64,000 nucleotides of DNA from a bacterium (lineage in GTDB: Bacteria > Patescibacteriota > Patescibacteriia > 2-01-FULL-39-33): assembly GCA_037130015.1 (NCBI GenBank), contig JBAXTU010000001.1:5153-69152 (forward strand). Reading direction: 5' to 3'. The notes beneath the pieces were generated by a model, which ran no database searches, was not told the origin of the DNA, and saw only the letters and a program-made list of their open reading frames with translations. The position numbers were made by a program, and so were the translations under genes. This document shows, piece by piece, positions 29,259 to 59,591 of the stretch (the stretch's first letter is position 1; each line of letters begins with the position of its first letter).

Positions 29259-30197
29259 CTAGTAGTAATTAGCTTGAGCGTGCCAGTGGCGCGTGTTTTC
29301 TTGGTAATAAATTGTATCTCCTATACGATAGCAAGGCATACTGCCACAAGGATAATTTCGTGACCCGCCATCATATACTCTGGTGCCATTAGTTTGTATA
29401 TTTTGATCTAATTTATCATAGCCTGCCTCGCCAGGTTTTCTTTGAATATCATAACAATTGTCATTACAGCCATAATGATGACCAGTTTCAGTACCGCCTG
29501 TCACATCAACCACACAATTAGTGCATTGCTGTTTTAGTCTAATGGCGCTATTTACGGCTGTTGATGCTAGGCCACCAACACAAGTGCAAGAGCCATTATT
29601 GCAATCTTGGCAATTACCTGATGAAGTAATATTGACACCAGCATTATTTAAAGCTGATCTATTGGCTGTTTCGTTAGTTGGTGTATTATTTGGAGATGGT
29701 TGACCAGTTCCGGTTCCAGTAGTTGATGGTTGAGTATCTTTATTACTATTATTGCTGATATTATTATTTAATGAACTTCCTCCACTACCTGGACTGGCAG
29801 CTGAGTCCACACCTGGTCCTAATTCAGGCATGGAAATAATTGTGAGCCTGGGATTAACAAGACTTAAAACAGTATAAGATAAAAAAAATAAAATTAGTCC
29901 GGCAATGGCCGAGATGATAATATCTTTGGCTTCGTTGATGGTGCCACTGTTGCCACGAGAGGTGAGCCATTTCATACCGCCCCACATCAGCATGACTGTC
30001 ACGAGCACGCCCACAACTCCGGCAAAAAATTGATACCACAAAGAAATATATTCATCAAAACTACTGACCGTAGTTTTTGAGCCTAGGGGTACATTGAGTT
30101 TGAATTCAGTAGAGGTGGCTGAAGCGATCAAAGGAAAAATAAACCAAACAGCAATAGCTATGGAAATAAATATTTTTAAATAGGTATTTTTTTTCAT
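29259..30197 (-). CDS. secreted/membrane protein with one VirB2/TrbC-like two-helix hairpin module and a Cys-rich C-terminal domain
   Basis: Signal peptide. Module WYQFFAGVVGVLVTVMLMWGGMKWLTSRGNSGTINEAKDIIISAIAGLILFFLSYTVLSLVNP is near-identical at DNA level to two modules in the next gene. Pro/Thr/Gly linker, then a C-terminal domain with more than 12 Cys. Confidence 0.5.
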   Translation of the reverse strand: MKKNTYLKIFISIAIAVWFIFPLIASATSTEFKLNVPLGSKTTVSSFDEYISLWYQFFAGVVGVLVTVMLMWGGMKWLTSRGNSGTINEAKDIIISAIAGLILFFLSYTVLSLVNPRLTIISMPELGPGVDSAASPGSGGSSLNNNISNNSNKDTQPSTTGTGTGQPSPNNTPTNETANRSALNNAGVNITSSGNCQDCNNGSCTCVGGLASTAVNSAIRLKQQCTNCVVDVTGGTETGHHYGCNDNCYDIQRKPGEAGYDKLDQNIQTNGTRVYDGGSRNYPCGSMPCYRIGDTIYYQENTRHWHAQANYY

Positions 30198-31455
30198 TTT
30201 AATTTATTTAGTAGCCGTTTTCTTTGTAATAATTATAATAACCGCCAGCAACACTCTCATAATTTTTGGTTTCAGCATAATCATTACCATGACAGCAATT
30301 ATATCTCATGCCATCTTGACAATCAACACTTGGAGCTACTGCATTTGGGCCACCATTGTAATAAGCAAATTTATCAGGCAAATTTAGGGGTTTGTTCGTG
30401 ATTGGGTTTTTAATATCGTTTGCTTGACTGAAATAGGCAGCACCAATTGCTATATTTTTCTCAGGATTAGCCATTAGCCAGTTACCGTCTATTGATGAAG
30501 CGTTTATACTTGAAAAATCTGCTCCATATTTTGGGTCTTTAACAACACCTTGGGCCGTGCCTGGTAAAAGTTGTGTTAATCCAAAAGCATTAGAGCCACT
30601 AGGAGGAACATTAGTATTGCCTCCACTTTCAATAGCTACTAAAGCGCGAAGCGCATTAGCATCAACATTATATTTATCAGAATAAGTGTTTATCCATCCA
30701 TTTATTTCAGGAGACATAGCGGGTGGTTTTAGTGGAGGCATGTTAGATAAACTTGGGTCATAAGATACGACACCAGCAGTAGCATTACTGCAATCAGCAG
30801 TGGACCTATCATTGAGTTTGCCACCGCCAGTATTACCTCCTCCACTACCACCAGCGCCACTTCCTCCACTTGCCGAACTAACTCCCGATCCTGGACTAGC
30901 AGGTGAGGCCACGCCCGGTCCTAATTCAGGCATGGAAATTTTAACCAATTCCGGATTGACCATATATAAAATAGTATAAGACCCGAACATTATAATCAAT
31001 CCGACGATAGCAGAAAAAATTGTGTCCTTGGCTTCATTGATAGTGCCACTATTGCCACGAGAGGTGAGCCATTTCATACCGCCCCACATGATCATGACCG
31101 TGGCCAAAACACCAATAACACCAACTAAAAGTTGATACCAAAAACCGATATACTCAGGAAAGCTGGCGACTGTTTTGTTATTGCCTAGTGGTACATTGAG
31201 GCAAAATTCACCAGCTTTGGCTGTACAGGCTTGAACGCTAGTAGAGGCAGACTTGTCTGGCATGGTCATGGTAAGTAGTCGCGGATTTACATATTGTAAA
31301 ATAGTATAAGACAGCATGACGAGCACCAAACCAATAATGCCGGAGAAAATAGTTTCTTTGGCTTCATTGATTGTGCCACTGTTACCACGAGAGGTGAGCC
31401 ATTTCATACCGCCCCACATGATCATGACTGTGGCGATGATTCCCACTATGCCCAC
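29840..31455. repeat. three near-identical roughly 200-bp modules encoding the two-helix hairpin (about 29840-30040, 30925-31140, 31240-31455)
   Basis: Shared string gccacgagaggtgagccatttcataccgccccacat recurs at about 29950, 31050 and 31390, with flanking similarity. Confidence 0.8.
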
Positions 31456-32004
31456 TATAAAATTGTACCAAACATTTACATAATCAGCGAAAGTGCTGTT
31501 GGTGAAATCTTGAGCCACTCCGGCTGTGAATTTGCCGATAGTGACATTGGGAGTGAATTGTATTGGGGCGGCTGGAGTAGTTGGGGTTGGGGCGGCTGGA
31601 GTAGTTGGGGTAGTCATGCCATTTGTTCCAATTACACCGTTATTGAGCAGGTTAGATCCTGTATTATAATCTTTGCCATTAAGTTGTTTGGCAATATAAA
31701 CAAAGTCTTTTGATAAGTTTAAACTATCCAGATTGGAAACATTATGCCACGGGCCATATATAGTATCCCCAGTGTAGCTGTGATAATACCATTTGCCACT
31801 ATCGTAATCAAAAGCAAAAAGTTCCCGTGCGTTAGCCTCCTTGCTATCAACAGTTATTATCGGTGACAGTTTTAAAGCTAAAGCATTATTTATTGGTAAT
31901 AAAACAAAAAAAAGATTGCACGCCAAAAACAAACCCAAGGTAAAGGCGAAGATTTTTTTGCTTGTCTGCCGGTAGGCAGGGTTTTTCTTATGTTGCTTTT
32001 TCAT
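30208..32004 (-). CDS. VirB1-like lytic transglycosylase (SLT domain) fused to two VirB2/TrbC-like hairpin modules
   Basis: Two copies of ...IVGI.G..ATVMIMWGGMKWLTSRGNSGTINEAK.TIFS.I.GL......SYTIL..VNP. SLT motifs ALVAIESGG and AFGLTQLLPGTAQ, then AYYNGG near the C-terminus. Confidence 0.6.
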   Translation of the reverse strand: MKKQHKKNPAYRQTSKKIFAFTLGLFLACNLFFVLLPINNALALKLSPIITVDSKEANARELFAFDYDSGKWYYHSYTGDTIYGPWHNVSNLDSLNLSKDFVYIAKQLNGKDYNTGSNLLNNGVIGTNGMTTPTTPAAPTPTTPAAPIQFTPNVTIGKFTAGVAQDFTNSTFADYVNVWYNFIVGIVGIIATVMIMWGGMKWLTSRGNSGTINEAKETIFSGIIGLVLVMLSYTILQYVNPRLLTMTMPDKSASTSVQACTAKAGEFCLNVPLGNNKTVASFPEYIGFWYQLLVGVIGVLATVMIMWGGMKWLTSRGNSGTINEAKDTIFSAIVGLIIMFGSYTILYMVNPELVKISMPELGPGVASPASPGSGVSSASGGSGAGGSGGGNTGGGKLNDRSTADCSNATAGVVSYDPSLSNMPPLKPPAMSPEINGWINTYSDKYNVDANALRALVAIESGGNTNVPPSGSNAFGLTQLLPGTAQGVVKDPKYGADFSSINASSIDGNWLMANPEKNIAIGAAYFSQANDIKNPITNKPLNLPDKFAYYNGGPNAVAPSVDCQDGMRYNCCHGNDYAETKNYESVAGGYYNYYKENGY

Positions 32005-38867: not shown

Positions 38868-40319
38868 ATGCCGACGGAAGACGGCAAGTACATGAAAATC
38901 AAAAAAAATAAACTAAAATTACTCTCAATTCCAACCGGCTTTTATATTGTCGGCCTGTCTTTGGTTGCGGTATTGGCCGGTTTTGGCGTGGCACTAGCTT
39001 GGGATGAACCGCTTTCTTCTCCACCACAAGGCAATATTTCTGGACCAGTAAATATTGGAGGTGGTAATCAGACTAAAACCGGAGGTTTAAGAGTAGAACA
39101 GGGCGTCACCACTACCCAGGTTTGTTTTATTGGTGATAATTCTTGTATTTCCTCGGCACTAAATAATGGTTGGTGGGCGCAAAATGGCGCTAATGATATT
39201 TATAATATTAACACTCATTTTGTAGGCATTGGCACCAATAATCCTTCGGCTCCATTGACGGTTTCTTTGGGTGCAGGTATTACATCTAAATTATTAATTG
39301 GTGAAGCAGATCTTAATGAAAATCCTGAATTGCAACTTGGTTATGTTGGTGGTCATTGGGGAATGTTTGTTAATAATGGTCCAAATAGTGAAGCCTCTGG
39401 TTTTGCTGGCAATTTGAATTTTTGGAATAGTAGTAATCGTTTTTCAATAACTTCAGGTGGTTATGTTGGTGTGGGTACGGTAAAGCCAGCCACAAATTTT
39501 GAAGTGGCTGGCACTAACGATGCTGTGGGTACTAAACTTAGAGTGACCAATACGGCTGGTAATCCTGAGTTGCAATTGCAATATGGGTTAGCAACTGGCG
39601 TTGATCATTGGGGAATTTATGCCAATCATGCTGACCAAAGTTTAAGATTTTGGAATAGTAGTGATCGTTTGGTTATTTTGCCTAATGGTGATATGGGTAT
39701 TAAAATTGGTATTAATACAGTCACTCCGACAGCAGTTTTGGAAATGGCTTTACCCAATCAAACCAAGGGCTTGGTTATTCATGTGGCAGGTTCATTGCCA
39801 GACAATCCGTTGGAAATTCAAAATGATAGTGGCAACCCTATTTTTCAAGTTGATTCAACTGGTGTAGCCACGGCTACTGATTTTTGTACTGCTAGTGGCA
39901 AATGCCTGAACAATACGACCAGTGTTATAAATGTTAGTGGTGGGGGTATTTTTGTTGGTTATACGTCTTCAACATATAAGGGTGACAATAGTTCAGGACC
40001 AACCAAGGGATATATTGGAGCTAGTAATCTTTGTACAGCAAATGTGGTTAGTAGTACTCATTGGTGCACTTCTGAAGAAATATTAGGCAGTATTAACGTG
40101 GGTATATCTTTGCCAGCTATTATTATGTGGATTGCCAATGGTCCTCCTGGATATTTAGCACAAAATAATGATTGTTCTGGTCGCACTGCAGGTGTTATTG
40201 GTCCAATAAATAATCGTAATTTTGGTAATGTTTGGGTTTTTCCTTCAGCTAATTATCCGCAAGGCTATGGCTCCATAGTCACCTGTGACAGCACTTATTC
40301 ATTGGCTTGTTGCAAATAG
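38868..40319 (+). CDS. surface protein 1: tail-fibre-like GIGTxxP beta repeats plus shared Cys-containing C-terminal (C-type-lectin-like) domain
   Basis: Signal anchor. Repeats VGIGTNNPSAPLTVS, VGVGTVKPATNFEVAG, IGINTVTPTAVLEMA. C-terminal module ...HWCTSEEILGSIN...IMWIANGPPGY...NDCSGRT...VTCDSTYSLACCK. Confidence 0.6.
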   Translation: MPTEDGKYMKIKKNKLKLLSIPTGFYIVGLSLVAVLAGFGVALAWDEPLSSPPQGNISGPVNIGGGNQTKTGGLRVEQGVTTTQVCFIGDNSCISSALNNGWWAQNGANDIYNINTHFVGIGTNNPSAPLTVSLGAGITSKLLIGEADLNENPELQLGYVGGHWGMFVNNGPNSEASGFAGNLNFWNSSNRFSITSGGYVGVGTVKPATNFEVAGTNDAVGTKLRVTNTAGNPELQLQYGLATGVDHWGIYANHADQSLRFWNSSDRLVILPNGDMGIKIGINTVTPTAVLEMALPNQTKGLVIHVAGSLPDNPLEIQNDSGNPIFQVDSTGVATATDFCTASGKCLNNTTSVINVSGGGIFVGYTSSTYKGDNSSGPTKGYIGASNLCTANVVSSTHWCTSEEILGSINVGISLPAIIMWIANGPPGYLAQNNDCSGRTAGVIGPINNRNFGNVWVFPSANYPQGYGSIVTCDSTYSLACCK

Positions 40320-40331
40320 ATTTAATAAAAT

Positions 40332-42674
40332 ATGAATATAAGCAAAGCAAAAAAAATCATTCTCTCAGCATCTTTTGCAATTTTTGCTTTGTTTTTAGTT
40401 GGAATAAATTTTGCTCAAGCTTCTTTGATTTGTGAGACCAATTTTACCAAGAATGGTTGGATTTGCGATGGCAGTCAAGGAAAATCTTGGTGCGGTAATA
40501 ATACTCTTGATTGCAATAATGAGCCTACTCCAGGAACAAATGAGACTATTGATTGCAATACTTGTAGTGCGGTTTGTGTTAGTGGTTTTCAAAATTGTGG
40601 TAGTGGTTGTACTAATATTCCTCATGCCCAAATAATAGCTCCTAATTGTTCAACTTATGATTTTTGTACTGGTCTTTGCAATAGTTGTAGCGTTGATTGG
40701 AATTCTTGCAGTGGTGGCACTTGTAATATTCAGACTGGAACAATCTGTACAGTTAATAGCAAAGAAGGAACATACAATGGGTGTAATTGTATTTGTAGTA
40801 GTAGTGGATTAGCGTGTACTGCTGGTGATGGCCGAGAAGGAAGATATGATAATAGCTGTGTTTGTAATGTTGATACTCCGCCAGCTTTATTAAATTATAG
40901 CAATAATATTTATGATTTGATTTTAAATAAAAATCTTACGGTTTTTGGCGTTAGTAATTTTAATGGAAACATTACAACCGCTTCTACTAGTGTGACTAAT
41001 TTTTGGGGTGATGTTATTTTTAATGGCAAGTTTTGTTTGGGCGCCACTTGTTTTAGCTCGGCAAATATTTCTCAGTGGAACAATGATATTGGATATCTAA
41101 CCACTTCAACCATTAGTTCTACAACTTTAAATTTTTCCACTACCACTATTAATAACTTAATAACAAATCTTAGCTCAAGTACTCTTAATTTTTCAACCAC
41201 CACTGTTAATAATTTAATAACCAATATTTATTCCACCACTAGCGGTGTATGGATTTTGGAAAATAACAATCTTTATACCAGCTCAACTGTTCTTAAGGTT
41301 GGTATTGGCACTACATCTCCAGCTGGTAATTTGCACGTATCAAAAAACCAAAATGACTTGACAACACTTATTGTTGATAATCAAAACTCTGGAACAGTTG
41401 CTGGTTCAAGATTTGAATTAAGAAATGGTGCAACAGAAGCTGACGCAACTAAATTATTAACAATGGGGACTGGATTTACGACCAATGGAGCCTATAAACA
41501 AGACGGTAGTTTATTAGAGTCTGGGGCTAATCTTTCTGGTGGTTTAAGTTTATTGGCAAGAGGGGCATCTGCTGATATGAGATTTTATACTGGTGGTTAT
41601 CTTGATGCTAATCAACGGATGACAATATTAAGTAGTGGCTTTGTCGGTATTGGAACGACAACTCCAGATAGTCTATTAACTGTTGTTGGTAGCTCTTGGC
41701 CTTCTGCGACAGTTAGACTATCTAATGGAACTAATACTGCTTCTATTTTAAAGGTAGAAAACGATAATGGAGCTTTTGCTGAGCTAGATACTGCAGGGTC
41801 AGGTTCAAATATTTATGGTTTGGCTCCTGGAGATAGTATTTTATGGGCAAAGAATAATTTACAATTTGGAGCAGGTGGGGCACGTGATGCAAGGTTATCT
41901 ATAAGTTCTAATGGTAATGTCGGTATCGGAACAACAACTCCAGCAAATAAATTGACTGTGCAAGGTAGTATGTCTGTGGAGGGGACAAATGCCAACGATA
42001 GAATATACACAGCCAATGGTGTTAGAAGTTTAGTTTTAACTGGTATGCCTGGTAGTAATCTATTTAATCAAGGCACTTTATCCATAAATGCTTGGAATGC
42101 TGGTGCTTCAGGTAGAACATTGCTTGGCTTAGGAGTAGCTGATACTCAAGTGTTTAGAGTTGATGTTTCAGGAAATACCGAAATAGCCGGTAAAGTCGGT
42201 ATTGGGACAACTACACCTTCAACTGCTTTATATGTGGTTGGTACGACCACGGCTACTGATTTTTGTACAATTGGAGGTAAATGCCTAGGCTCTATGAGTA
42301 GCGGAATTTCTGGCGTGCAGGTAGTAGCTTTAACTGCTAGTTCATATACTGGTTTAACAGCTAGTAATACTGGTTATAAAGGTGTTGATACTTTATGTAA
42401 TACGGCTTCAACTGGCAGTCATGTTTGTACAACTGAAGAAATAATGAATTATGTTAGATATGCTTCGGCTATCCCTGCTTTTTTGGTAGGAAAATATGGC
42501 TGGATTGTCAGTGGTCCTCCTGGTTTTACGGTAGAGGCGAATGATTGCAAAGGTTGGAGTAGTAATTCAAGCAATGCTTTTGGGCGTCTTTGGAATTTTG
42601 GCGCTGGCGGTCCGCAAGGTGAGGGTGAGATGGCGCTTTGTTTCCAATCGTATCAGTTTATTTGTTGTAAATAA
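40332..42674 (+). CDS. surface protein 2: Cys-rich N-terminal domain, GIGTTTP repeats, mosaic cassettes, lectin-like C-terminus
   Basis: Sec signal (AQA/S). N-terminal roughly 150 aa with more than 25 Cys. Carries cassettes identical to genes 3 and 4. C-terminus ...HVCTTEEIMNYV...WIVSGPPGF...NDCKGWS...ALCFQSYQFICCK. Confidence 0.6.
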   Translation: MNISKAKKIILSASFAIFALFLVGINFAQASLICETNFTKNGWICDGSQGKSWCGNNTLDCNNEPTPGTNETIDCNTCSAVCVSGFQNCGSGCTNIPHAQIIAPNCSTYDFCTGLCNSCSVDWNSCSGGTCNIQTGTICTVNSKEGTYNGCNCICSSSGLACTAGDGREGRYDNSCVCNVDTPPALLNYSNNIYDLILNKNLTVFGVSNFNGNITTASTSVTNFWGDVIFNGKFCLGATCFSSANISQWNNDIGYLTTSTISSTTLNFSTTTINNLITNLSSSTLNFSTTTVNNLITNIYSTTSGVWILENNNLYTSSTVLKVGIGTTSPAGNLHVSKNQNDLTTLIVDNQNSGTVAGSRFELRNGATEADATKLLTMGTGFTTNGAYKQDGSLLESGANLSGGLSLLARGASADMRFYTGGYLDANQRMTILSSGFVGIGTTTPDSLLTVVGSSWPSATVRLSNGTNTASILKVENDNGAFAELDTAGSGSNIYGLAPGDSILWAKNNLQFGAGGARDARLSISSNGNVGIGTTTPANKLTVQGSMSVEGTNANDRIYTANGVRSLVLTGMPGSNLFNQGTLSINAWNAGASGRTLLGLGVADTQVFRVDVSGNTEIAGKVGIGTTTPSTALYVVGTTTATDFCTIGGKCLGSMSSGISGVQVVALTASSYTGLTASNTGYKGVDTLCNTASTGSHVCTTEEIMNYVRYASAIPAFLVGKYGWIVSGPPGFTVEANDCKGWSSNSSNAFGRLWNFGAGGPQGEGEMALCFQSYQFICCK
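41298..41634. repeat. 337-bp coding cassette, near-identical copy at 43464-43800
   Basis: Direct comparison shows two mismatches (cttgat vs gctgat). Encodes GIGTTSPAGNLHVSKNQNDLTTLIVDNQNSGTVAGSRFELRNGATEADATKLL...RFYTGGY in surface proteins 2 and 3. Confidence 0.9.
41635..41941. repeat. 307-bp coding cassette, identical copy at 45586-45892
   Basis: Encodes GFVGIGTTTPDSLLTVVGSSWPSATVRLSNGTNTASILKVENDNGAFAELD...NGNVGIGTTTP in surface proteins 2 and 4. Directly abuts the first cassette. Confidence 0.9.
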
Positions 42675-42689
42675 TTTTTTTAAATAATT

Positions 42690-44567
42690 ATGAATTTTAA
42701 ACAAGCAAATTTGGCAGGTAAAATTATAATGGTTTCAGCCATGTTGGTTTTTGGTTTGTTTTTTTCGCATACTGTTAATGCTGTTTGTACGGAATTTATT
42801 AATGGCACTCACTGGTGCACGCCAGGCCAAACTCTTTGCGGTACGGCTGTGGCCGGTGGCTTAAATTCTTCTTATTTTTGTTTTGCGACTCAGCCGACTT
42901 GTGGATCTAATCAAGTAGAAAGTTGTGCTTCAACAAATCCTAGTTGTTGTGCTTGTTCCCCTGGCTATACAATGTGCAGTGGAACTTGTAAATCAAATAC
43001 TCCTGTTGGTTGTAAGGCTGGTGAAAGCTGGGATGCCTGTTCCCAGACTTGTACTTGTAGTAGTGGCAATGTTTGTAGCACTAATGGTGCTTGTAATGCA
43101 TCTTGCAGTATAACAGAATCTTATGATGCGATATCTTGTATGTGTGTGAGCAGATTTTATTGGAATTTAATAAATAGCAATACTTTGTCGCCGTATAATG
43201 CTAGTTTTAATGTCGGTATTGGTACAACAGGTACTTCGGCTTCAAATAAATTAACTGTCACTGGATCTGCGTTTATTCCTAATACTAATGTTTCTAGTAC
43301 GGTTATGGTTTCTGGTGCTTATGGTGGTGGTATTTTAATGCAAGATACAAAATATGGTGGAATTTGGATGAATGATCTTGGTGCCACTTTGAATTTCAGT
43401 TCTAATGGAACATCAGCTGGTTTTGGCAGTAATTATGGCCAAATGGTTTTAAAAAATGGTTATGTTGGTATTGGCACTACATCTCCAGCTGGTAATTTGC
43501 ACGTATCAAAAAACCAAAATGACTTGACAACACTTATTGTTGATAATCAAAACTCTGGAACAGTTGCTGGTTCAAGATTTGAATTAAGAAATGGTGCAAC
43601 AGAAGCTGACGCAACTAAATTATTAACAATGGGGACTGGATTTACGACCAATGGAGCCTATAAACAAGACGGTAGTTTATTAGAGTCTGGGGCTAATCTT
43701 TCTGGTGGTTTAAGTTTATTGGCAAGAGGGGCATCTGCTGATATGAGATTTTATACTGGTGGTTATGCTGATGCTAATCAACGGATGACAATATTAAGTA
43801 CTGGCAATGTTGGTATTGGGACAACTACGCCGGGAGTAAAATTAGATGTCTATGGTGGAAGTATTAGGCAAGATGGCGGAACATATAATTTGACCGTAAG
43901 TAATGGCTCAACCGTTACTGGCAGTAATCATCTTATTGTTACTGCTTCTAGTAGCTATATGCAGTTAAATGCTCCTAATAATAGTATAATATTGAATGCT
44001 GGTAATAAGCCTAGTGATTATATCTCATTTAATAGTGGAGATGGAGCAGTGGAATATATGAAGGTGGCTTATGGTGGTGCTGTCAGTATTCCAGGAGCCT
44101 TAGCGGTTGGTAGTTTTAATCTTGCTACAGGCGCTTCAGCTGGTAAAGTCCTAACTTCTGATGTTTCTGGTAATGCCACATGGGCGTCTTTGCCTGCCAG
44201 TGGAGTTGCTGTTTTTGTCACAACCACAGTTGCTGTTTTGGGTGATAATAGTTCCACTTCTGTTTCTCCTGGTTATAAAGCAGTCAATGCTTTGTGTAGT
44301 CAAAAAGTTTCTGGCAGTCATTTATGTTCTGTTTCAGAAATTTTTAACAGTATAAATGCTAATGTGACCATGCCGACGGTTGCAGTTTGGATTTCTAATG
44401 GTCCTCCTGGTTATACAGCCCAAAGCTTTGATTGTAATGGTAGAACCAATAAGACACCAGCTCATTTGGGAGCTATTTGGTTGCCGGCTGGTACGGAAGG
44501 CGCTCCCGAAGGGCATGGAGCCTTGGTAGCCTGTGATAATAGTTGGTCTTTAGCTTGTTGCAAATAA
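42690..44567 (+). CDS. surface protein 3: Cys-rich N-terminal domain, GIGTTTP repeats, lectin-like C-terminus
   Basis: Signal peptide (VNA/V). Cys-rich N-terminal domain. C-terminus ...HLCSVSEIFNSIN...WISNGPPGY...FDCNGRT...ALVACDNSWSLACCK. Confidence 0.6.
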   Translation: MNFKQANLAGKIIMVSAMLVFGLFFSHTVNAVCTEFINGTHWCTPGQTLCGTAVAGGLNSSYFCFATQPTCGSNQVESCASTNPSCCACSPGYTMCSGTCKSNTPVGCKAGESWDACSQTCTCSSGNVCSTNGACNASCSITESYDAISCMCVSRFYWNLINSNTLSPYNASFNVGIGTTGTSASNKLTVTGSAFIPNTNVSSTVMVSGAYGGGILMQDTKYGGIWMNDLGATLNFSSNGTSAGFGSNYGQMVLKNGYVGIGTTSPAGNLHVSKNQNDLTTLIVDNQNSGTVAGSRFELRNGATEADATKLLTMGTGFTTNGAYKQDGSLLESGANLSGGLSLLARGASADMRFYTGGYADANQRMTILSTGNVGIGTTTPGVKLDVYGGSIRQDGGTYNLTVSNGSTVTGSNHLIVTASSSYMQLNAPNNSIILNAGNKPSDYISFNSGDGAVEYMKVAYGGAVSIPGALAVGSFNLATGASAGKVLTSDVSGNATWASLPASGVAVFVTTTVAVLGDNSSTSVSPGYKAVNALCSQKVSGSHLCSVSEIFNSINANVTMPTVAVWISNGPPGYTAQSFDCNGRTNKTPAHLGAIWLPAGTEGAPEGHGALVACDNSWSLACCK

Positions 44568-44594: not shown

Positions 44595-47500
44595 ATGATG
44601 AACAAAAAATTATTAACTTTTTTAGGAATTGCTTTAATTGTTTTAGGATTTTTATTATCGTCTCATTCAGCTCTAGCTTTGGTCTGTACAACAAATACTA
44701 CAAAAAGTGGATTTTATTGTTCTAGTCTTCAAAATAAATCCTGGTGTGGTAACGGTACTTTGAATTGTGATTATGAGCCAGTTTGCAGTGGCGCTAATCA
44801 AACTTTTACATCAAGTGATTGTAATAGTTGCACCTGTTCTTGTACTAGTGGTTATACTATGTGTGCTGGTGATTGTAAGATTAGTACTGGTGATTGTCTA
44901 CCTGGTCAACAGTGGAGCCCATGTATGGGTAAGTGTGTTTGTGATTCTAATCATTGTAGTAATAATGGTACTTGCAATATAGTAATTGGATCAAGTTGTA
45001 CGGTGGCATTTAAACCGGGACATTATAATAGTAGTTGTTCTTGTGTTTTTGAAACCCCTCCTGCTTTATTGAATATTAATGATGCCAATATTTATGATTT
45101 GATATTAAATCAAGGTTTGACTGTTTTAGCTACTACTACTCTCGCAGGTACCAACACTTTTGCTACCACCACGGTAAGCAACTTAACTGTAAATAATTTA
45201 TGTTTGAATAATGGTTGTAACTCTGACTGGCCAATAAGTGGTGGTAGTAATGTTTGGGTTTCATCAGGTAATATTATTTATCCAACCTCAACAGTTAGTA
45301 GTGTTAATATTGGGACGACTACATCTTTTGTAAATTCACGGTTTAATGTTTTGGGAAATATAAGTGCTATAAGTAACAATTATATTGCAAATAGTGGTGT
45401 TGGTTTATATTTAGGAACATTTATAGAAAATAATGGTTATGTTTATGGTGGTTCAATAATTAAAAACATTAATACCACTAACGGTGATGGTAATGGATTT
45501 ACTTTACCAAGACTAGGTTTTTTTACTTCAGGTGTAGTTAATGGTAGTCCAGCGCAGATAGCTGAAAGAATGTCAATATTATCAGGTGGCTTTGTCGGTA
45601 TTGGAACGACAACTCCAGATAGTCTATTAACTGTTGTTGGTAGCTCTTGGCCTTCTGCGACAGTTAGACTATCTAATGGAACTAATACTGCTTCTATTTT
45701 AAAGGTAGAAAACGATAATGGAGCTTTTGCTGAGCTAGATACTGCAGGGTCAGGTTCAAATATTTATGGTTTGGCTCCTGGAGATAGTATTTTATGGGCA
45801 AAGAATAATTTACAATTTGGAGCAGGTGGGGCACGTGATGCAAGGTTATCTATAAGTTCTAATGGTAATGTCGGTATCGGAACAACAACTCCTATAGCAA
45901 AATTAGTTGTTCAGACAACAGCACCTAGCGATGGGATTGCGTTAAGTGATGGGAGTAAATACAGGGCATTTTTAGCTAATAATAATAGTAATGGAGCTAT
46001 ATTTGGATTAAATGAGAATACTACCCTGGTAGTTAGGCTTGAGAGTAATAATACTTCTTATATTAATAATGGTTATAATTTTGGTATTGGCACTACCGAT
46101 CCTAAAACAAAATTAGATGTTCAGGGTGGTATTGTTAGTGCAAATGGATATAATTTAAGCGACTCAGCCACTGATAATCTTTTGGTTAATGGTGATTTTG
46201 AAATGAATAATATGTCAGGTTGGTCGGGAAATGGAGTAGTGACTTCTACTGCTGGCAGTTATTCTGGAAAATATGCCATGCAGATAACAGGTAGTCAGCA
46301 AATTTTAAGTGATGATTATATTCCTGTTGACCCAACCAGAGATATTTTTCAATTAGATGCTTGGGTTAAAAAAACAGTAATAGGAGGAGGTTTATATTTT
46401 GGTTATATTGCTTATAACGCTGATAAGGTAGAAATTACAACTCCTCCTTGTGGCACTTATTGTTATTCGGCAGCAGCTGCTTATGTTGTCCCTGTTGATA
46501 GTAGTTGGCATAAATTTTCATCAACAATGGTCGGAGAAGGCACTGTTTTTCCAAATTTCCCTGTCGGGACAAAATATATCAGGGTTTTGGGTTTAATGAA
46601 TTATGGTGGTACTGGTGGTCCTATAACTTTACTTGATCATGTCACTTTAAAGCGATTGGTTAAAGGCCCATTGATTGCTGGTAATAATTTTTCTTCTACC
46701 GGTTTAGTTGATCAAAATCAATATTCAACCTTATACACAACCGCCTCAAATAACTTGATTATTGGTTCTCCTGGCAATGTTGGTATTGGGACAACTACAC
46801 CAGAATCTAAACTACATGTGGCTGGACAAATTTCAACCGCACCATCTTTGTCAGGTTTAGCTGGAGCTGGGTTAGGATTGCAATTTTCTAATTCTTTAAA
46901 AATAGGAATAGGTAGTGACCCAGTAAGTCCGTATGGTGGTTGGTTTCAAGTCAGTAATGGTATTGGGAGTTCTTTCCCACTGCTTCTTAATCCTCTTGGT
47001 GGAAATGTTGGTATTGGGACTACGACCCCAGCAAATAAATTGACTGTGCAAGGTGGTGTACAAATTGTAGATGGTTCGCAGGCTAATGGTAAAGTTCTAA
47101 CTTCTGATGCCAATGGCTTGGCGAGTTGGCAACCTGCCGGAGGTATAATTAATGATGTTTATTTATATAATGGCGCCAGGATAATAACTGTTTCTACCAC
47201 AAAAAATAATTACTTTTTTGGTGGAGCTGGTAATACTGCTATGACTGGAGTTAATAATATGGCTAATGGTAATGGTGCTCTTTTATTTAATGTTAGTGGC
47301 AGGGATAATCTTGCCAATGGTTTTGGCGCTCTTACTAATAATGTTAGTGGTAGCAATAACGTAGCCAATGGTAGTGGCGCTCTTTATAATAATATTATTG
47401 GTTCGGGAAATTCTGCTTTTGGTTATAACTCTCTTTATAATAGTTTGGGTGGTACTAATATTGCTATTGGAAATTATTCTGGAGCAGGTTTGCAAAATGG

Positions 47501-49112
47501 CTCAAGCAATATATTTTTAGGTTCCAGTGCTCAGGTGTTTAATAATCCTGGTGATCCTAATACTATTATTATTCCCACAAATTCAATTGCTATTGGTACT
47601 AATGCTACAATTGGTGTCACCACTACCGCGGGTATAACCAATGCCATTGCTATTGGTGCTAATACTGTGGCCATGGCCTCTAATACTATGGTATTAGGAA
47701 ATGGAGTTAGTGTTGGTATTGGGACAAATAATCCATCTGCTAAACTGGATGTAAGAGGTGGAACTCTTGTTTTTGGTAATATCTATTCAATTGCTAATTT
47801 TAATGACGGGTCACAGCTAGCAGGTAATGGTAAGGGTCTTGTGGTTGGCTATGATTCATCAAAACAATCAACTGTTTTTTGGGCGAATTCAGTCGGTCCA
47901 TCTTCAAATTTTGCTTTTTGGACTTATGATAGTGATAGTACTACGTGGGCTGAAAGAATGACTATTTCGGGTAGTGGTGCTGTCAGTATTCCAGGAGCCT
48001 TAGCGGTTGATAGTTTTAAGCTTGCTACAGGCGCTTCAGTTGGCAATGTCATGACTTCCGATGTTAGTGGCAATGCCTCATGGTTGCCACCTAGCGGTGG
48101 TATAGTTAATGATGTTTATTCATATAATAGTAAAAACATCATGGTAGTTTCTACTACACGAGATAGTTATTTTTTTGGCGGAGCTGGTAACACTACTATG
48201 ACTGGTAACGGTAATACAGGTAGTGGTATGTATTCTCTTAGTTATGATACTACTGGAGGCTTTAATACGGCTTATGGTTATGGTGCTCTTTATCAAAATA
48301 CCACTGGTGGAAATAATGTTGCTGTTGGTGCTACTGCTCTTAGTAATAATACTAGTGGTAGTGGTAATGTAGGTATTGGTTTTAAAGCACTTATGCTTTT
48401 TAATTCTACTAGTGGTGGTAATGTAGGTATTGGTAATAATGCTGGTATGGGTATGGTGAAAGGCGCAAGTAATATTTTTTTAGGTGAGAATGCTCAAGTA
48501 TATAACGAGGCCATTGGCAATACTAATATTAATCCCACAAATTCAATTGCTATTGGTTCTTTGGCACAGATTGGTAATGCACTTACTACAAATATAGACA
48601 ATGCAACCGCTATTGGCTATGGCGCATTGGCAGTCGCATCTAATACTATGGTATTAGGAAATGGAGCTATTAGTGTTGGTATTGGAACAAGCACACCACA
48701 AAATGCATTGCATGTTTATAGTGCTACTGGCCAATCTTACATTTCAGCTGATGCTCCAGCTAATAGAGTGGCTGGTTTTAATATCAGAGAAAACGGAGTT
48801 GTTAAATGGTATATATCTAAATCAAACACCACCACTCCAGCAATTCAGAATGGTGCTTTAAATTTTGCCACTTCTTCAGGGAATGTAATGACATTAGCAC
48901 AAAATGGCAATGTTGGTATTGGCACTTCCACTCCAGCCTCAACGCTTGATGTTAAAGGGACTGTTCGTATAGAAAATAGAAATGTCGTGCCTGCTGTAGG
49001 AATGGGATGGGTTGTTTGTTATGTAAGGGGCACTAATGAATTAGGTCATTGCACTGGCACTGTTTCTGGTGGGGGACAATGTGCTTGTGTTTCTAATACT
49101 CCAGCGAAGTAA
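44595..49112 (+). CDS. surface protein 4 (1505 aa): Cys-rich N-terminus, GIGTTTP repeats, CBM4_9-like module, duplicated YadA-head-like repeat modules
   Basis: Signal peptide (ALA/L). LLVNGDFEMNNMSGWSGNG CBM-like module. Two internal roughly 225-aa modules with NxxAxGxxAL-type repeats (MANGNGALLFNVSG..., NSIAIGTNATIG...). Different C-terminus from genes 1-3. Confidence 0.6.
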   Translation: MMNKKLLTFLGIALIVLGFLLSSHSALALVCTTNTTKSGFYCSSLQNKSWCGNGTLNCDYEPVCSGANQTFTSSDCNSCTCSCTSGYTMCAGDCKISTGDCLPGQQWSPCMGKCVCDSNHCSNNGTCNIVIGSSCTVAFKPGHYNSSCSCVFETPPALLNINDANIYDLILNQGLTVLATTTLAGTNTFATTTVSNLTVNNLCLNNGCNSDWPISGGSNVWVSSGNIIYPTSTVSSVNIGTTTSFVNSRFNVLGNISAISNNYIANSGVGLYLGTFIENNGYVYGGSIIKNINTTNGDGNGFTLPRLGFFTSGVVNGSPAQIAERMSILSGGFVGIGTTTPDSLLTVVGSSWPSATVRLSNGTNTASILKVENDNGAFAELDTAGSGSNIYGLAPGDSILWAKNNLQFGAGGARDARLSISSNGNVGIGTTTPIAKLVVQTTAPSDGIALSDGSKYRAFLANNNSNGAIFGLNENTTLVVRLESNNTSYINNGYNFGIGTTDPKTKLDVQGGIVSANGYNLSDSATDNLLVNGDFEMNNMSGWSGNGVVTSTAGSYSGKYAMQITGSQQILSDDYIPVDPTRDIFQLDAWVKKTVIGGGLYFGYIAYNADKVEITTPPCGTYCYSAAAAYVVPVDSSWHKFSSTMVGEGTVFPNFPVGTKYIRVLGLMNYGGTGGPITLLDHVTLKRLVKGPLIAGNNFSSTGLVDQNQYSTLYTTASNNLIIGSPGNVGIGTTTPESKLHVAGQISTAPSLSGLAGAGLGLQFSNSLKIGIGSDPVSPYGGWFQVSNGIGSSFPLLLNPLGGNVGIGTTTPANKLTVQGGVQIVDGSQANGKVLTSDANGLASWQPAGGIINDVYLYNGARIITVSTTKNNYFFGGAGNTAMTGVNNMANGNGALLFNVSGRDNLANGFGALTNNVSGSNNVANGSGALYNNIIGSGNSAFGYNSLYNSLGGTNIAIGNYSGAGLQNGSSNIFLGSSAQVFNNPGDPNTIIIPTNSIAIGTNATIGVTTTAGITNAIAIGANTVAMASNTMVLGNGVSVGIGTNNPSAKLDVRGGTLVFGNIYSIANFNDGSQLAGNGKGLVVGYDSSKQSTVFWANSVGPSSNFAFWTYDSDSTTWAERMTISGSGAVSIPGALAVDSFKLATGASVGNVMTSDVSGNASWLPPSGGIVNDVYSYNSKNIMVVSTTRDSYFFGGAGNTTMTGNGNTGSGMYSLSYDTTGGFNTAYGYGALYQNTTGGNNVAVGATALSNNTSGSGNVGIGFKALMLFNSTSGGNVGIGNNAGMGMVKGASNIFLGENAQVYNEAIGNTNINPTNSIAIGSLAQIGNALTTNIDNATAIGYGALAVASNTMVLGNGAISVGIGTSTPQNALHVYSATGQSYISADAPANRVAGFNIRENGVVKWYISKSNTTTPAIQNGALNFATSSGNVMTLAQNGNVGIGTSTPASTLDVKGTVRIENRNVVPAVGMGWVVCYVRGTNELGHCTGTVSGGGQCACVSNTPAK

Positions 49113-51011: not shown

Positions 51012-52142
51012 ATGGGATTATTTTCTTCAAACAAAACTAGTTATCTCGGAGTTGATTTGGGTTCGTCTTCAATCAAGGTGGTTGAATTGGCCAATAGCAA
51101 TGGGCGACCGCGACTGGTCACTTATGGTTTTACCGAAAAAAAATTGACTGACAATAATTTTATCAGCAGTAGTGATTTTTTGAATGCCGAAGACGAAATT
51201 GCCAAAACACTCATGGAAGTGTGCAATAAATCGCGTACTTTTTCCAAAAAAGCCGTAGCTGCTTTGCCTAGCTTTGCTGTATTTACTTCTATTTTGAATT
51301 TGCCTGAAATGTCCAAAAAAGAATTGGCTTCAGCTATTACTTGGGAAGCAAAAAAAATAATTCCTATGCCTTTGGAAGAAGTTATTTTGGATTGGAAAAT
51401 TATTTCTCAAGAAGAATATAAAAATGAAGACACTAAAGATCCGGCCGGAGAAGGGGATAACCAACAATTAAATCCTGTTAGTAAAATATTTTCTCATCCT
51501 ACTAAGGGTTTGAAAATTCTGCTCACTGGCGCCAGTAAAAGCTTGGTGCGCAAATATGTGAATATTTTTAATACGGCTGGCGTCTCTTTGCTGAGCTTAG
51601 AAACTGAAAATTTTGCCTTGGTGCGTTCGCTTATTGGCAATGATCAGGCAGTTATTATGATTGTTGATCTTGGAGCCAATTCTTCAAGTATTATGGTGGC
51701 TGAAAAAGGCATACCGGTTATGGCTAGAAGCGTGGAAATGGGAGGAACTCTTATTACTAAGGCTATTTCTAGCAGTCTTAATGTCAATTTGGACAGAGCC
51801 GAACAATTCAAACAGGACATGATGTTAGAAACAAATTCGGCCAGTAATTCTTTGCCACAAACAGTGGAAAAAGCTTTTGCTACAATTCTTAATGAAATTA
51901 AATATACGGTTGGTTTGTATCAAGAACAGCACAATCAAAAAATAGAAAAAATAATTTTGACCGGTGGTAGTGCAAATTTGGGAAATTTGACCGGTTATTT
52001 ATCAAAAGTTTTAAACATCAACGCTTATGTTGGCGATCCTTGGGCTAGAGTTATTTATCCTGTTGAATTAAAGCCGATTTTGGATCGTTTGGGTTCGCGT
52101 TTTTCTGTGGCCATAGGTTTGGCCATGCGCAACATTGAATAA
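51012..52142 (+). CDS. pilM: type IV pilus assembly protein PilM (actin-like ATPase fold)
   Basis: N-terminus YLGVDLGSSSIKVVEL. About 375 aa. Immediately upstream of a PilN-like gene. Confidence 0.75.
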   Translation: MGLFSSNKTSYLGVDLGSSSIKVVELANSNGRPRLVTYGFTEKKLTDNNFISSSDFLNAEDEIAKTLMEVCNKSRTFSKKAVAALPSFAVFTSILNLPEMSKKELASAITWEAKKIIPMPLEEVILDWKIISQEEYKNEDTKDPAGEGDNQQLNPVSKIFSHPTKGLKILLTGASKSLVRKYVNIFNTAGVSLLSLETENFALVRSLIGNDQAVIMIVDLGANSSSIMVAEKGIPVMARSVEMGGTLITKAISSSLNVNLDRAEQFKQDMMLETNSASNSLPQTVEKAFATILNEIKYTVGLYQEQHNQKIEKIILTGGSANLGNLTGYLSKVLNINAYVGDPWARVIYPVELKPILDRLGSRFSVAIGLAMRNIE

Positions 52143-52147
52143 TTTTT

Positions 52148-54118
52148 ATGGCCAGAATAAATCTTCTACCAGAAAATTTACGTGAGCAAGAGCAAAAAGA
52201 AATGGAGAAGACTGCCAGTCGTTCCAAAACTTTTAATGTGGAAATGACCAATCCTGAAATTCAAAAATCAAGATTAAATAAGAGCGACAAACCCAAGGAA
52301 TCATTTTTTAAAAAAATATCCAATGTTTTGGGTCCGGCTAAAACAGTTAAGCCAACAGACGACAGTCTAAGTTATCCGACTTTGCCACCATCTAGATTAT
52401 CATCAGCTGATATTGATTTATTAGCTTTGGCAAAAAAAGATCGTTTTTTACGTCAGCCAGTGCAGGTTTCTGGTCATAATTTTAATCGTGGAATAAAAAT
52501 AAAGTCAGCCGAAGACAAAACTTCATGGAAAGAAGATTTGGGAGTTCCAGAAGTATCAATGAGACAGATGTCCTCGGCTAATAATGCGTCTAATACCAGG
52601 CAAGAGCTTGTTGGTAAAAATTTTAATCCAAAAGTTGTTTTGAGAATGGACAAAGCCAGAAGATGGAATTTTCTTGATTGGCTTTTTGGAGGAAATATAG
52701 ATCAGCCGGCCAAGCCAACTATTCAATCTTTTGGAGAGATGAATGAAAAAAATTCTTCAAAAAATCATTTGATAAAAGCTAAGCCATCTGTTGTCAGAGA
52801 GTTTACAAAAGAACATTATTGGTGGAAAAATTTGTTTTCAGTTTTCGCAAAAACAGAAAAAAAACCGCATTTGCCTATTAAAATGCCAATCATGCCAAAA
52901 TTTCAGCCCCATCAGGCGCCAGTTAAGACAACTGTTGTGCCGTTAACCACAAATGCTGTTTCCAAGGCACCAGTTTTTCCTAAAATAACCAAATCAACAC
53001 AGCCAAAAGGCCAGAGTTGGTGGAGTGTTTTTATGTCTATGTTTGCGTCTAAGCCGAAAAAACCAAAATTACCAATCCATAATATGCAGTCATTGCCAAA
53101 ATTTCAGCCAAAAATGACGCCTATTAAGCCTGTGGTTGTGCCACACCCTGTTCATGTTGCGTCACTAAAACCAATTTTGCCAAAAAACATTAAGCCAAAA
53201 GGACCGAGTTGGTGGAGTAAATTAATGGCAAAATTTAAGGCCAAACCAAAAAAACCACAAATAATTCAAGAAAAAATAAAACCAATTTCTCATGATCTGC
53301 ATCATTATAATTCGGAAATAAAAGATTTAAAACCTCAATATAAATTTGAGACGCCAGCTAGTCATCATGAGCCAATCAAACACGAACAGGCAATTTTAGA
53401 TAAGCCGATTAATCATGACTTGCATCATTATAAACCAGAAGTAAAAGATTTAAATGTTCCGCCACCTTCGCCACTACATCAAGATAAGAAAAAAGTAGAA
53501 GCGCCTCATGTAGAAGCGCCTCACAAAAAAGAATTACCAGAAAAATTAAAAAAGTCACTGGTGGATATTAATTTTATTCCCGAGGATTTGTTGGCGATTA
53601 GTTATTACACTCCGATTTGGAAAACTTTAATTATTCTTTTGGCGGTTATTGTTCCGGCCTCAGCCGTGGTCGGCGCTTATTTTTGGATTGATAAAGAAAG
53701 TCAAAAAGTAAAAAGTGATTTGTTAGTTTCTGAAAAAGTATTAAATGATTTGAATTTTAGTTTATCTGATTATCAAAAGAAAACTAATCAATTAAAAAAC
53801 AGATTAACTACTCTTCAAGGTTTATTAAATTCGCACATCCGTTGGACTAAGTTTTTTACCGCTCTGGAAAAATATACTCTTGACGGTGTTTATTATGGCA
53901 ATTTTTCAGCTGACACTTCTGGACAAGTTGTTTTGCCAGCCACAGCCAAAGATTATGGCACTTTAGCCAGTCAAATTGTCGCTTTAAAAAATGCTACTGA
54001 TTTTGTCAGTGAAGTTAAAGTTGATAATATAAGTATGAAGTCAGACAATAGAGCTGGTATTATCGGAGTTAGTTTTCAGTTAAAAATGGTTTTAGCTGAT
54101 AAATTTTTTACCAAATAA
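52148..54118 (+). CDS. pilN: PilN-like protein with about 470-aa repetitive Pro/Lys-rich cytoplasmic linker
   Basis: N-terminal PilM-binding motif RINLLPENL. Internal imperfect repeats (KPHLPIKMPIMPKFQP / KPKLPIHNMQSLPKFQP; HDLHHYNSEIKDLKP / HDLHHYKPEVKDLNV). Second INFIPEDLL motif just before the single TM. Periplasmic PilN-like C-terminal domain. Confidence 0.55.
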   Translation: MARINLLPENLREQEQKEMEKTASRSKTFNVEMTNPEIQKSRLNKSDKPKESFFKKISNVLGPAKTVKPTDDSLSYPTLPPSRLSSADIDLLALAKKDRFLRQPVQVSGHNFNRGIKIKSAEDKTSWKEDLGVPEVSMRQMSSANNASNTRQELVGKNFNPKVVLRMDKARRWNFLDWLFGGNIDQPAKPTIQSFGEMNEKNSSKNHLIKAKPSVVREFTKEHYWWKNLFSVFAKTEKKPHLPIKMPIMPKFQPHQAPVKTTVVPLTTNAVSKAPVFPKITKSTQPKGQSWWSVFMSMFASKPKKPKLPIHNMQSLPKFQPKMTPIKPVVVPHPVHVASLKPILPKNIKPKGPSWWSKLMAKFKAKPKKPQIIQEKIKPISHDLHHYNSEIKDLKPQYKFETPASHHEPIKHEQAILDKPINHDLHHYKPEVKDLNVPPPSPLHQDKKKVEAPHVEAPHKKELPEKLKKSLVDINFIPEDLLAISYYTPIWKTLIILLAVIVPASAVVGAYFWIDKESQKVKSDLLVSEKVLNDLNFSLSDYQKKTNQLKNRLTTLQGLLNSHIRWTKFFTALEKYTLDGVYYGNFSADTSGQVVLPATAKDYGTLASQIVALKNATDFVSEVKVDNISMKSDNRAGIIGVSFQLKMVLADKFFTK

Positions 54119-54121
54119 TTT

Positions 54122-54757
54122 TTGTTTATGTTAACTAATACAGACGAACAGAACCCAAAAGACAAGGCCAAGAGTGGACGCAAAAAAAAGCGCCTAGGTA
54201 TGATTATTAATAAATATTTTATTTTTATTGCTTTTGGTTTATTTCTTGTAGTTTTAATAGTCGGATATTTTTTGATGCTTAAAGACAATTATGCCAGCTT
54301 GAATCAGGCTCAAGATAAATTATCCCAAGCTAAAAGCGCGGTTATGTTTTTGTCAAAAGAACATCAAGCCATGATAGATAGCCAAGCGCAATCTCCACTG
54401 CTTTCGCCAACAGAAGATCGTTTATTCTCTTTAGCTTTACCAAAAAGTTTTGATTTGCCATCGGCTATTATCCAATTGACCGAGCTTTGTAAGGCCACTG
54501 GTTTTATGGTGACAAAAGTAGATGTGATTGAAAATAATTTAGTTGCAACTAGTGCTTCAGGGCAAAAAGTCGGCAAAGCCAATTTGTCACTCAGCGTGGT
54601 TGGTGGTGACTATGATGCTTGGAAAAGATTGCTTTTGGCCTTGGAACAAAGCGTGATGATTGTTGATGTTAGTAGTATTGATTTTAATTCGCAAAGCGCT
54701 AATTATAAATTAAATTTGACCGCTTACTATTATCCGGATACTGATACTAAACAATAA
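54122..54757 (+). CDS. pilO: PilO-like bitopic protein
   Basis: One N-terminal TM, a predicted coiled coil, then an alpha/beta domain. Position is right after pilN. Confidence 0.4.
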   Translation: MFMLTNTDEQNPKDKAKSGRKKKRLGMIINKYFIFIAFGLFLVVLIVGYFLMLKDNYASLNQAQDKLSQAKSAVMFLSKEHQAMIDSQAQSPLLSPTEDRLFSLALPKSFDLPSAIIQLTELCKATGFMVTKVDVIENNLVATSASGQKVGKANLSLSVVGGDYDAWKRLLLALEQSVMIVDVSSIDFNSQSANYKLNLTAYYYPDTDTKQ

Positions 54758-54761
54758 TTTT

Positions 54762-55058: not shown

Positions 55059-55078
55059 TAAAATAATTTTGGAGGCAA

Positions 55079-56857: not shown

Positions 56858-56875
56858 TATATAATAATTAATTAT

Positions 56876-57271: not shown

Positions 57272-57274
57272 TTT

Positions 57275-58354: not shown

Positions 58355-58363
58355 TTAATAAAT

Positions 58364-59572: not shown

Positions 59573-59591
59573 GTTTTCCACTGTTGCGTTT

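Follow-up and report, generated by a model that had tools for sequence, protein, structure and literature searches.

The window analysed here is a 64-kb stretch of a 74-kb contig (JBAXTU010000001.1) of patescibacterial DNA, and our subject is a cysteine-rich module that closes three of four successive genes in it, G1 to G4 (Table 1). G1, G2 and G3 are co-directional, each open reading frame (ORF) closing with CCK and then a stop codon; their products are deposited at NCBI as MEI6287990-92 (G1 is MEI6287990 and G3 is MEI6287992) and labelled 'hypothetical protein'. An earlier note on this DNA had described a shared C-terminal cysteine module ending in CCK, and this is confirmed for all three proteins, although the module measures about 120 residues and not the 130 given there. 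The copies are 37-40% identical in pairs and align with 30 invariant columns, among them six cysteines at positions 33, 43, 79, 112, 120 and 121 (residue numbering is that of the G3 module throughout); G2 is the most divergent of the module-bearing paralogues. These three copies, and no others, turn up in a six-frame scan of the window.

The motifs that had been proposed for the module can be read from the three copies, with small corrections. The element C..H(W/V/L)C(T/S)xxEI occurs as CTANVVSSTHWCTSEEI, CNTASTGSHVCTTEEI and CSQKVSGSHLCSVSEI; the element W(I/V)xxGPPG(Y/F) is present as well, although the residue after the tryptophan is I in all three copies and never V; (N/F)DCxG is likewise found; and the end, proposed as C(x5-7)(A/I)CCK, is seen as C-x6-(A/I)-CCK, that of G2 being ALCFQSYQFICCK.

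Table 1. Module-bearing genes of the window, their paralogue G4 and the features within them.
Feature	Position	Strand	Description	Basis
G1	38868..40319	+	483 aa; at the N-terminus a hydrophobic anchor or signal, then a tail-fibre-like stalk, a neck (C-x5-C) and the module	ORF list
G2	40332..42674	+	780 aa; signal peptide, Cys-rich N-terminus, GIGTTTP-repeat stalk, neck, module	
G3	42690..44567	+	625 aa; signal peptide, Cys-rich N-terminus, stalk, module	
G4	44595..49112	+	1505 aa; paralogous fibre with another C-terminal tip, without the module	blastp and blastn among paralogues
G1 C-terminal module	39939..40316	+	126 aa, end ...CDSTYSLACCK	in 3-module search profile
G2 C-terminal module	42309..42671	+	121 aa, end ...CFQSYQFICCK	AF2 model
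G3 C-terminal module	44199..44564	+	122 aa, end ...CDNSWSLACCK	
G2 stalk segment	41298..41947	+	two cassettes shared with G3 and G4	repeat search (families D2, D3), blastn

A large family of C-terminal modules

A word-indexed homologue search with one module returned nothing, and an exhaustive search with a hidden Markov model (HMM) was required. Run with word filters off on 1.84 billion representatives of clusters at 50% identity, the profile of the three window modules matched 1,086 of them with an E value of 1e-3 or less and 688 with one of 1e-10 or less. Among the 150 best hits the match almost always reaches the last residue of the protein; 78 of these 150 end in ACCK, and most of the others in CC plus one polar residue. 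The resemblance between modules lies far beyond chance. The family signature consists of GY..A..LC, GSHxC..E, WI..GPPGY..NDC and the terminal CC-K; across the bacteria of the candidate phyla radiation (CPR) and the DPANN archaea, modules are conserved at 30-48% identity, the GPPGY...NDC stretch being invariant.

Among 205 aligned modules, C33, C43, C79, C112, G68, D78 and W94 are invariant; Y26, H41, W64, P69 and P70 are conserved to more than 97% (W64 in 202 of the 205, with I or V beside it at position 65), and E47 to 92%. Within the C-terminal 40 residues or so, G105, G107, C112 and the terminal CC are invariant, where C120 and C121 were the criterion by which the set was selected, so that their invariance in it is uninformative; both are also invariant in an alignment of 72 proteins retrieved by the profile only. 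A comparison of the cysteines across homologues, proposed along with the module, finds all six kept across the family. Indels and variation concentrate at residues 54-62, 84-89, 95-104 and 113-117 of the 205 modules. Two optional cysteines, near positions 1 and 54, occur together in 18 of them, singly in 11 and not at all in 176 (Fisher p 1e-16, uncorrected for phylogeny); this co-occurrence is the behaviour expected of disulfide partners and supports the use of disulfides in general.

The proteins that carry the module span 110 to more than 2,000 residues and have stalks of very different lengths, one of them with collagen repeats, while the short members (110-220 residues) comprise little beyond a signal peptide and the module. 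With a tighter 8-sequence alignment, one genome per species was scanned; this yielded 28 related loci, 9 of which have two module-bearing genes in tandem.

Pfam has no match to the full G1-G3 proteins, to their modules at E<=10, or to the family consensus, and NCBIfam has none on G1-G3; sequence searches of the PDB with profiles of 3 and of 57 sequences return no significant match; and the 71 relatives reached through the word index have no precomputed Pfam domain across the module and, where they are named at all, are called 'hypothetical protein'. On these comparisons, the module is a new sequence family, of known fold and role, that is absent from Pfam and NCBIfam.

Predicted fold of the module

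The modules of G3 and G2 were modelled as monomers with AlphaFold2 (AF2) from the 72-sequence alignment, reaching a mean predicted local distance difference test score (pLDDT) of 89.8 and a predicted template modelling score (pTM) of 0.85 for G3, and 90.3 and 0.86 for G2. Both models have the same order of elements (β, α1, α2, β2, short helix, β3, β4, β5), with a strand at 6-9, a helix at 26-36, a short strand at 41-44, a helix at 45-53 and a strand at 63-66 in the first half, and a short helix at 78-82 and strands at 90-95, 106-111 and 115-121 in the second; this is the α/β topology characteristic of C-type-lectin-like domains (CTLDs). A C-type-lectin fold, which the earlier note had proposed for these C-termini, is thus predicted for the module with high confidence; the models of both paralogues are confident, and neither they nor the profile searches yielded a confident alternative.

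In the models C33 lies in α1 (canonical C1), C79 before β3, C112 just past β4, and C120 and C121 in the last strand. C112 and C120/C121 occupy the places of canonical C3 and C4, in keeping with the FIC-like end that had been suspected, and W-I-x-x-G-P-P-G-Y places a WIGL-type hydrophobic motif on β2 (strand 63-66), at the WIGL position, also as suspected. Two other assignments shift. The H-x-C-(T/S)-x-x-E-I segment, formerly taken for α1, forms a short strand and helix α2 instead (residues 41-53), α1 being the GY..A..LC segment at 26-36, which the earlier motif list did not contain; and NDC, likened to the EDC site, precedes β3 by 11 residues and does not stand at its start.

The top Foldseek matches of the module are snaclecs, BDCA2 and endostatin, and the structural matches with their scores are given in Table 2. 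Neither Mtd nor FGE, both of which had been suggested for structural comparison, is among the top matches.

Table 2. Structural matches of the module.
Structure	Score	Length
Aggrecan G1 Link module	7.4	80
Collagen XV endostatin domain	7.3	93 (longest)
LYVE-1	6.9-7.0	82
Bdellovibrio Bd2740 C-terminal domain	6.9	85
TSG-6 Link module	6.6	80
Legionella Lcl C-terminal domain	6.5	85
Invasin	6.0	78
Intimin	5.5	85

The Ca2+- and sugar-binding motifs of lectins are essentially lacking from the 205 modules (EPN 0, QPD 1, WND 1); Pfam Lectin_C (PF00059) matches neither the window modules, even at E<=10, nor the sets of 57 and 72 family members; and β2 and β3 are only about 24 residues apart, so that the module is without the long loop region by which canonical lectins bind Ca2+. 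Having neither this loop nor these motifs, the module belongs with the compact, calcium-independent CTLDs; it is not a canonical lectin.

Homology to endostatin and DUF1554, an initial idea, is unconfirmed by sequence and is kept here as a structural resemblance. An hhalign comparison of the family with three endostatins gives E values of about 0.08-0.09, which are not significant, and DUF1554 (PF07588) matches neither the window modules at E<=10 nor the consensus; of the Pfam families compatible with the fold, it alone is hit repeatedly by members, always below threshold (3 of 57, best E 0.066; 4 of 72, best E 0.029). As the DUF1554 matches are sub-threshold, the hhalign result is weak and the consensus is without a match, we place the module in no existing sequence family.

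Stalks, bases and tips of the fibre proteins

The tail-fibre-like nature of the stalks, noted earlier, is borne out by matches to phage tail-fibre families of the PHROG collection: residues 119-346 of G1 match phrog_9942 (tail fiber; E 2.2e-7), residues 427-642 of G2 match phrog_9942 (E 2e-11) and phrog_18345 (E 2.2e-9), and G4 matches phrog_9942 (E 8e-9) among tail fibre and tail spike PHROGs. All of these matches cover the stalks, and none reaches into the module. A repeat search finds 15 copies of a (V/I)GIGTTxP-type unit in the middle parts of the fibre proteins.

Parts of the stalks are nearly identical at the DNA level between paralogues. G2 41298-41665 and G3 43464-43831 are 97.3% identical, including 300 nt at 100%; G2 41619-41947 and G4 45570-45901 are 97.6% identical by blastn; and G3 44074-44183 and G4 47974-48083 share 110 nt at 89%. 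Outside these cassettes the genes, C-terminal heads included, are just about 35-44% identical at the protein level. Such near-identical cassettes next to heads that are some 40% identical indicate that the stalk cassettes have recently been shuffled, by recombination or gene conversion.

G4 combines the base and stalk of G2 and G3 with a different tip, as expected of a conserved base with an exchangeable head. This tip also contains cysteine (the C-terminus reads ...CACVSNTPAK, CYVRGTNELGHCTGTVSGGGQCACVSNTPAK), and G4 further shows a weak CBM_4_9 / NTTRR-F1 match at 526-582 and matches to tail-spike and virion-structural PHROGs at 1117-1359.

At the other end, G2-G4 begin with a signal peptide and a cysteine-rich region of about 150 residues, for which no family match was found; their first 200 residues contain 20-22 cysteines (22 in G2). 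This N-terminus lies at 40332-40900, 42690-43200 and 44595-45100 (an example is CETNFTKNGWICDGSQGKSWCGNNTLDC), and a similar one is seen in the homologues P0009, P0016, P0019 and P0021 and at locus L029. G1 starts differently (38868-39100), with a hydrophobic segment followed by the motif W-DEP-x4-PP-x-GN-x3-P-x-N-x-GG-x2-Q-x-K-x-GGL; motifs like it trail the signal sequence in the homologues P0006, P0014, P0029 and P0033.

A neck motif, TATDFC-x5-CL, stands about 20 residues ahead of the module in G1 and G2 (39868-39907 and 42247-42286), where the DNA of the two genes is 85% identical across 40 nt. Only 32 of 181 family members have a C-x3-7-C immediately upstream of the module.

Genomic neighbourhood and distribution

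The window encodes ClpC, HtpX, LemA, RecG, RadA, KsgA, monoderm-type genes of a type IV secretion system (T4SS) and a full type IV pilus (T4P) operon. The nearest named homologues of ClpC (50-62% identity) are all from Patescibacteria, namely Buchanan-, Kerfeld- and Falkowbacteria. The T4SS genes, at 20836-22848 and 29259-32004, comprise a VirB4/TraG-like ATPase and two T4SS-pilin/TrbC proteins, and one fused to an SLT transglycosylase; a monoderm-type T4SS gene set has reportedly been described for Patescibacteria in a published study. A second block of large surface proteins opens with a giant secreted protein of 3,103 residues at 4900-14211, with 90 cysteines and a weak CBM_4_9 match, which is followed by three further ORFs at 14277-19666 without a family match.

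The T4P operon lies directly downstream of the fibre genes on the same strand (51012-63294) and comprises PilM, a PilB-like T2SSE ATPase, a PilT-like ATPase, a PilC-like T2SSF protein, a prepilin peptidase and small ORFs that are possible pilins. At 27 of the 28 other loci no T4P genes turned up within a distance of 6 kb from the module, and for locus L002 the downstream-gene matches are only to two unscanned ORFs at 61990-63294. Since the linkage is not kept elsewhere, we treat the adjacency of the pilus operon as incidental. We also rejected a T4P-associated adhesin or minor pilin, as the N-termini resemble ordinary signal peptides or an anchor and have no G/FTLIE-type prepilin motif, and the T4P linkage is not conserved; the lectin-like minor pilins of Saccharibacteria are of the L-type and PLL-type, and not CTLDs.

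The 28 related loci are mostly from CPR bacteria (Falkow-, Komeili-, Peregrini-, Staskawicz-, Magasanik-, Gracili- and Parcubacteria), with DPANN archaea among them (Woese-, Pace- and Nanoarchaeota) and a few in metagenome-assembled genomes labelled Elusimicrobia or Gammaproteobacteria. At locus L009 the module gene adjoins archaeal uS7 and aEF-2 (914 bits, cutoff 738), and L016 carries an archaeal-type IF-2/aIF5B; these marker genes bear out the archaeal assignment of at least two contigs. The DPANN members (L009 3536-4198, L013 5548-6300, L016 5605-6345) have 220-250 residues and form a subfamily that ends in ...LMCCG(G..) and not in ...ACCK; each of their genes is followed by one for a very large secreted protein (693+, 1411 and 1608 residues). 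In Peregrinibacteria/Peribacteria (L023, L024, L026 and L027), a short module gene (176 residues) and a long one (489-555 residues) stand in tandem, which suggests a conserved two-gene unit in this lineage.

An origin from a phage or prophage was considered and rejected: the neighbours (LemA, HtpX, ClpC, T4P) are cellular, tblastn finds no match to the module in GenBank phages, and the best match in the BFVD viral structure library (E 0.07) is not significant. In IMG/VR a single contig has the module, L029 (IMGVR_UViG_3300001866_000229, 238-8910); it encodes two giant fibre proteins (1477+ and 1405 residues) and no evident phage genes, and is probably cellular CPR DNA that was called viral owing to its tail-fibre-like repeats.

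The module as a probable fibre head

On balance we find it probable, from the predicted models, that this compact CTLD-fold module free of calcium motifs is the C-terminal head of secreted, tail-fibre-like surface proteins of Patescibacteria. The analysis shows the six invariant cysteines, the position at the extreme C-terminus, the tail-fibre-like stalk, the signal peptides, and the size of the family and its spread over CPR and DPANN, together with the fold as far as predicted structures can show it. That such a head binds something we infer from its likeness to solved bacterial CTLD heads (Bd2740, Lcl-CTD, invasin, intimin and Mtd); the adhesin role of the module-bearing fibres, which the earlier note had thought fitting, we infer in the same way, by analogy.

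In such a head the six cysteines would form three disulfides: C33 in α1 and C43 in the short strand would each pair with one of C120 and C121, and C79 with C112. The side chains of the adjacent C120 and C121 would point to opposite faces and so reach C33 and C43, stapling the terminal strand to the core. The scaffold would be maintained by the conserved core (Y26, H41, E47, W64, GPPGY and N77-D78), and the variable, indel-rich loops 54-62, 84-89, 95-104 and 113-117 would provide the surface that contacts the ligand. The fibre would hold the head away from the cell, where its ligand may be a surface molecule, either glycan or protein, on a partner or host cell or in the matrix, and tandem paralogues with tips that are some 40% identical and freshly exchanged stalk cassettes would amount to a small repertoire of fibres.

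Several points weigh against this reading. The function as a fibre head rests on analogy; the most conserved stretch of the module, GPPGYTAxxNDC (68-79), sits where canonical CTLDs have their variable long loop, and might point to a conserved function that is not diversified recognition; the identical columns of the three window paralogues favour secondary structure (17/60) only slightly over loops (13/62); and, the T4P neighbours not being conserved near the module elsewhere, genomic context lends no functional support.

The alternative that survives best, although we consider it unlikely, is that the module acts mainly as a C-terminal cap for trimerisation and nucleation of folding, which would set the register of the stalk and have no ligand of its own. 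Comparable caps are the NC1 domains of collagens and the foldon of T4 fibritin. That it always stands at the very C-terminus, behind many kinds of stalk and even one with collagen repeats, would suit such a cap; the conservation between CPR and DPANN, with its invariant GPPGY...NDC, exceeds what would be expected of a diversifying receptor-binding tip; and the structural neighbours include endostatin, from the NC1 region of collagen XV, and Lcl-CTD, a suggested initiator of collagen folding, as well as Bd2740, whose CTLD acts as a trimer. Yet the members of 110-220 residues offer almost no stalk to nucleate, and most indels and variation lie in the loops, as they would on a binding surface. 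The two roles are, moreover, compatible: Bd2740 and Lcl-CTD both trimerise and bind.

The module could also be an anchor that attaches the fibre to the producer's own envelope, binding cell wall or S-layer, so that the cysteine-rich N-terminus would be the distal, functional end. G2-G4 have signal peptides that look cleavable and no other evident anchor, and a C-terminal domain conserved throughout a lineage is typical of anchoring modules, but the N-terminal hydrophobic anchor of G1 and several homologues would put the C-terminus at the distal end, the module occurs in CPR bacteria and DPANN archaea, whose envelopes differ, and G4 retains base and stalk without the module, which speaks more for a head that can be exchanged than for an anchor that is required. 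We therefore hold this orientation to be quite improbable.

The remaining two readings are essentially excluded. A canonical, Ca2+-dependent carbohydrate-recognition domain is very improbable from the missing Lectin_C match, motifs and long loop region described above, and the best structural matches are to compact, calcium-independent branches (Link, endostatin, Bd2740, Lcl, invasin, intimin). The least probable, with hardly a chance left to it, is a variable CTLD of the Mtd kind, targeted by a diversity-generating retroelement (DGR): although DGR target domains are C-terminal and of CTLD fold, and DGRs are reported for Patescibacteria in one published account (PMC11661182), a Pfam scan of the 38 ORFs of at least 150 residues in the 64-kb window of the 74-kb contig finds no reverse transcriptase, blastn of the modules against their own loci (the window and the 28 related ones) finds no template repeat but paralogous modules alone (68-95% identity, with mismatches at all four bases), the C-terminal 40 residues that should be variable contain the invariant G105, G107, C112 and CC, and neither FGE-sulfatase nor DUF1566 (PF07603) has a Pfam match in window modules or family members. 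The mechanistic side of the Mtd analogy drawn in the earlier note falls with it, neither reverse transcriptase nor template/variable repeats having been found in the window or the 28 loci.

To return to the fibre head, a broader version of it is speculative, and we would give it a low probability: the module may be the host-recognition head of episymbiont fibres across both domains, CPR and DPANN, spread laterally, with tandem paralogues in each genome whose stalk cassettes recombine and whose loop-variable heads set which hosts can be attached to. If true, the fibres would be a major, so far uncharacterised factor in the host range of these lineages, next to type IV pili. Host recognition and attachment by CPR bacteria and DPANN archaea are largely unexplained, and studies to date have dealt mainly with type IV pili; the fibres are concrete candidates for episymbiont attachment. 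A large family of 'hypothetical' surface proteins (at least 1,086 clusters at 50% identity) gains a predicted fold and a testable role, and the module profile could annotate thousands of proteins.

Comparison with known systems

The fold is already known, as are CTLD heads on bacterial and phage fibres (Bd2740, Lcl, Mtd, invasin/intimin), and the mechanism proposed here is not a new one. What is new is a large family that has no Pfam or NCBIfam profile, with a distinctive signature, three putative disulfides and a distribution centred on CPR and DPANN. The Link modules among the structural matches (TSG-6, LYVE-1, aggrecan G1) are eukaryotic hyaluronan binders with two disulfides; from them, as from invasin and intimin, the module differs in having only 8-14% identity and no sequence similarity, and no binding-site residues corresponding to theirs were identified.

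With the endostatin domain of collagens XV and XVIII (PDB 1dy2, 1dy0) the module shares one cysteine in α1 and a C-terminal cysteine pattern of about Cys-x30-33-Cys-x7-8-Cys that ends the domain, read from the sequences as Cys-x33-Cys-x7-CysCys in the module and Cys-x29-Cys-x7-Cys in endostatin; endostatin has four cysteines in about 180 residues with extra insertions, as against the six of the module. The leptospiral endostatin-like Len proteins (DUF1554) are surface proteins and have been described as adhesins for factor H or the extracellular matrix of the host.

Mtd of the Bordetella phage BPP-1 resembles the module in having a CTLD-fold head, C-terminal on a fibre-like protein, without a Ca-binding motif (PMC10769870). 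The module loci differ from Mtd and DGR proteins in that they have no DGR components; Mtd is not a top structural match, and no viral relatives of the module were found (BFVD, GenBank phages; one doubtful IMG/VR contig). In Legionella pneumophila, Lcl-CTD (DUF1566, PDB 8q4e) forms a CTLD-like trimer carried by a collagen stalk; it binds glycosaminoglycans and has been suggested to initiate the folding of the collagen (PMC11162425). It has no disulfides, in contrast to the six invariant cysteines of the module, and since the window modules are not notably basic (K+R 5-6, D+E 5-7), a charge-based binding of glycosaminoglycans as in Lcl-CTD is not suggested.

The C-terminal domain of Bd2740 (PDB 8oks) is the tip of a mosaic adhesive trimer (MAT) fibre of Bdellovibrio bacteriovorus, a calcium-independent, trimeric CTLD that caps a surface-displayed fibre for prey recognition and whose deletion slows entry into prey (PMC10769870). 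Module and domain are only 12% identical, without a match at the sequence level; the module has six invariant cysteines with a terminal CC, and comes from CPR and DPANN, whereas Bd2740 is from a deltaproteobacterial predator. The likenesses lie elsewhere: Bd2740 binds no calcium and has no Ca-binding residues, as the module has no EPN, QPD or WND; each belongs to a fibre family of many paralogues with different tips; and each is made by a producer that lives by attachment to other cells. The fibre genes of the window show a modular layout, an exchange of tips, cassettes of 97-100% identity and tail-fibre-like stalks, so that a MAT-like build may be considered for them.

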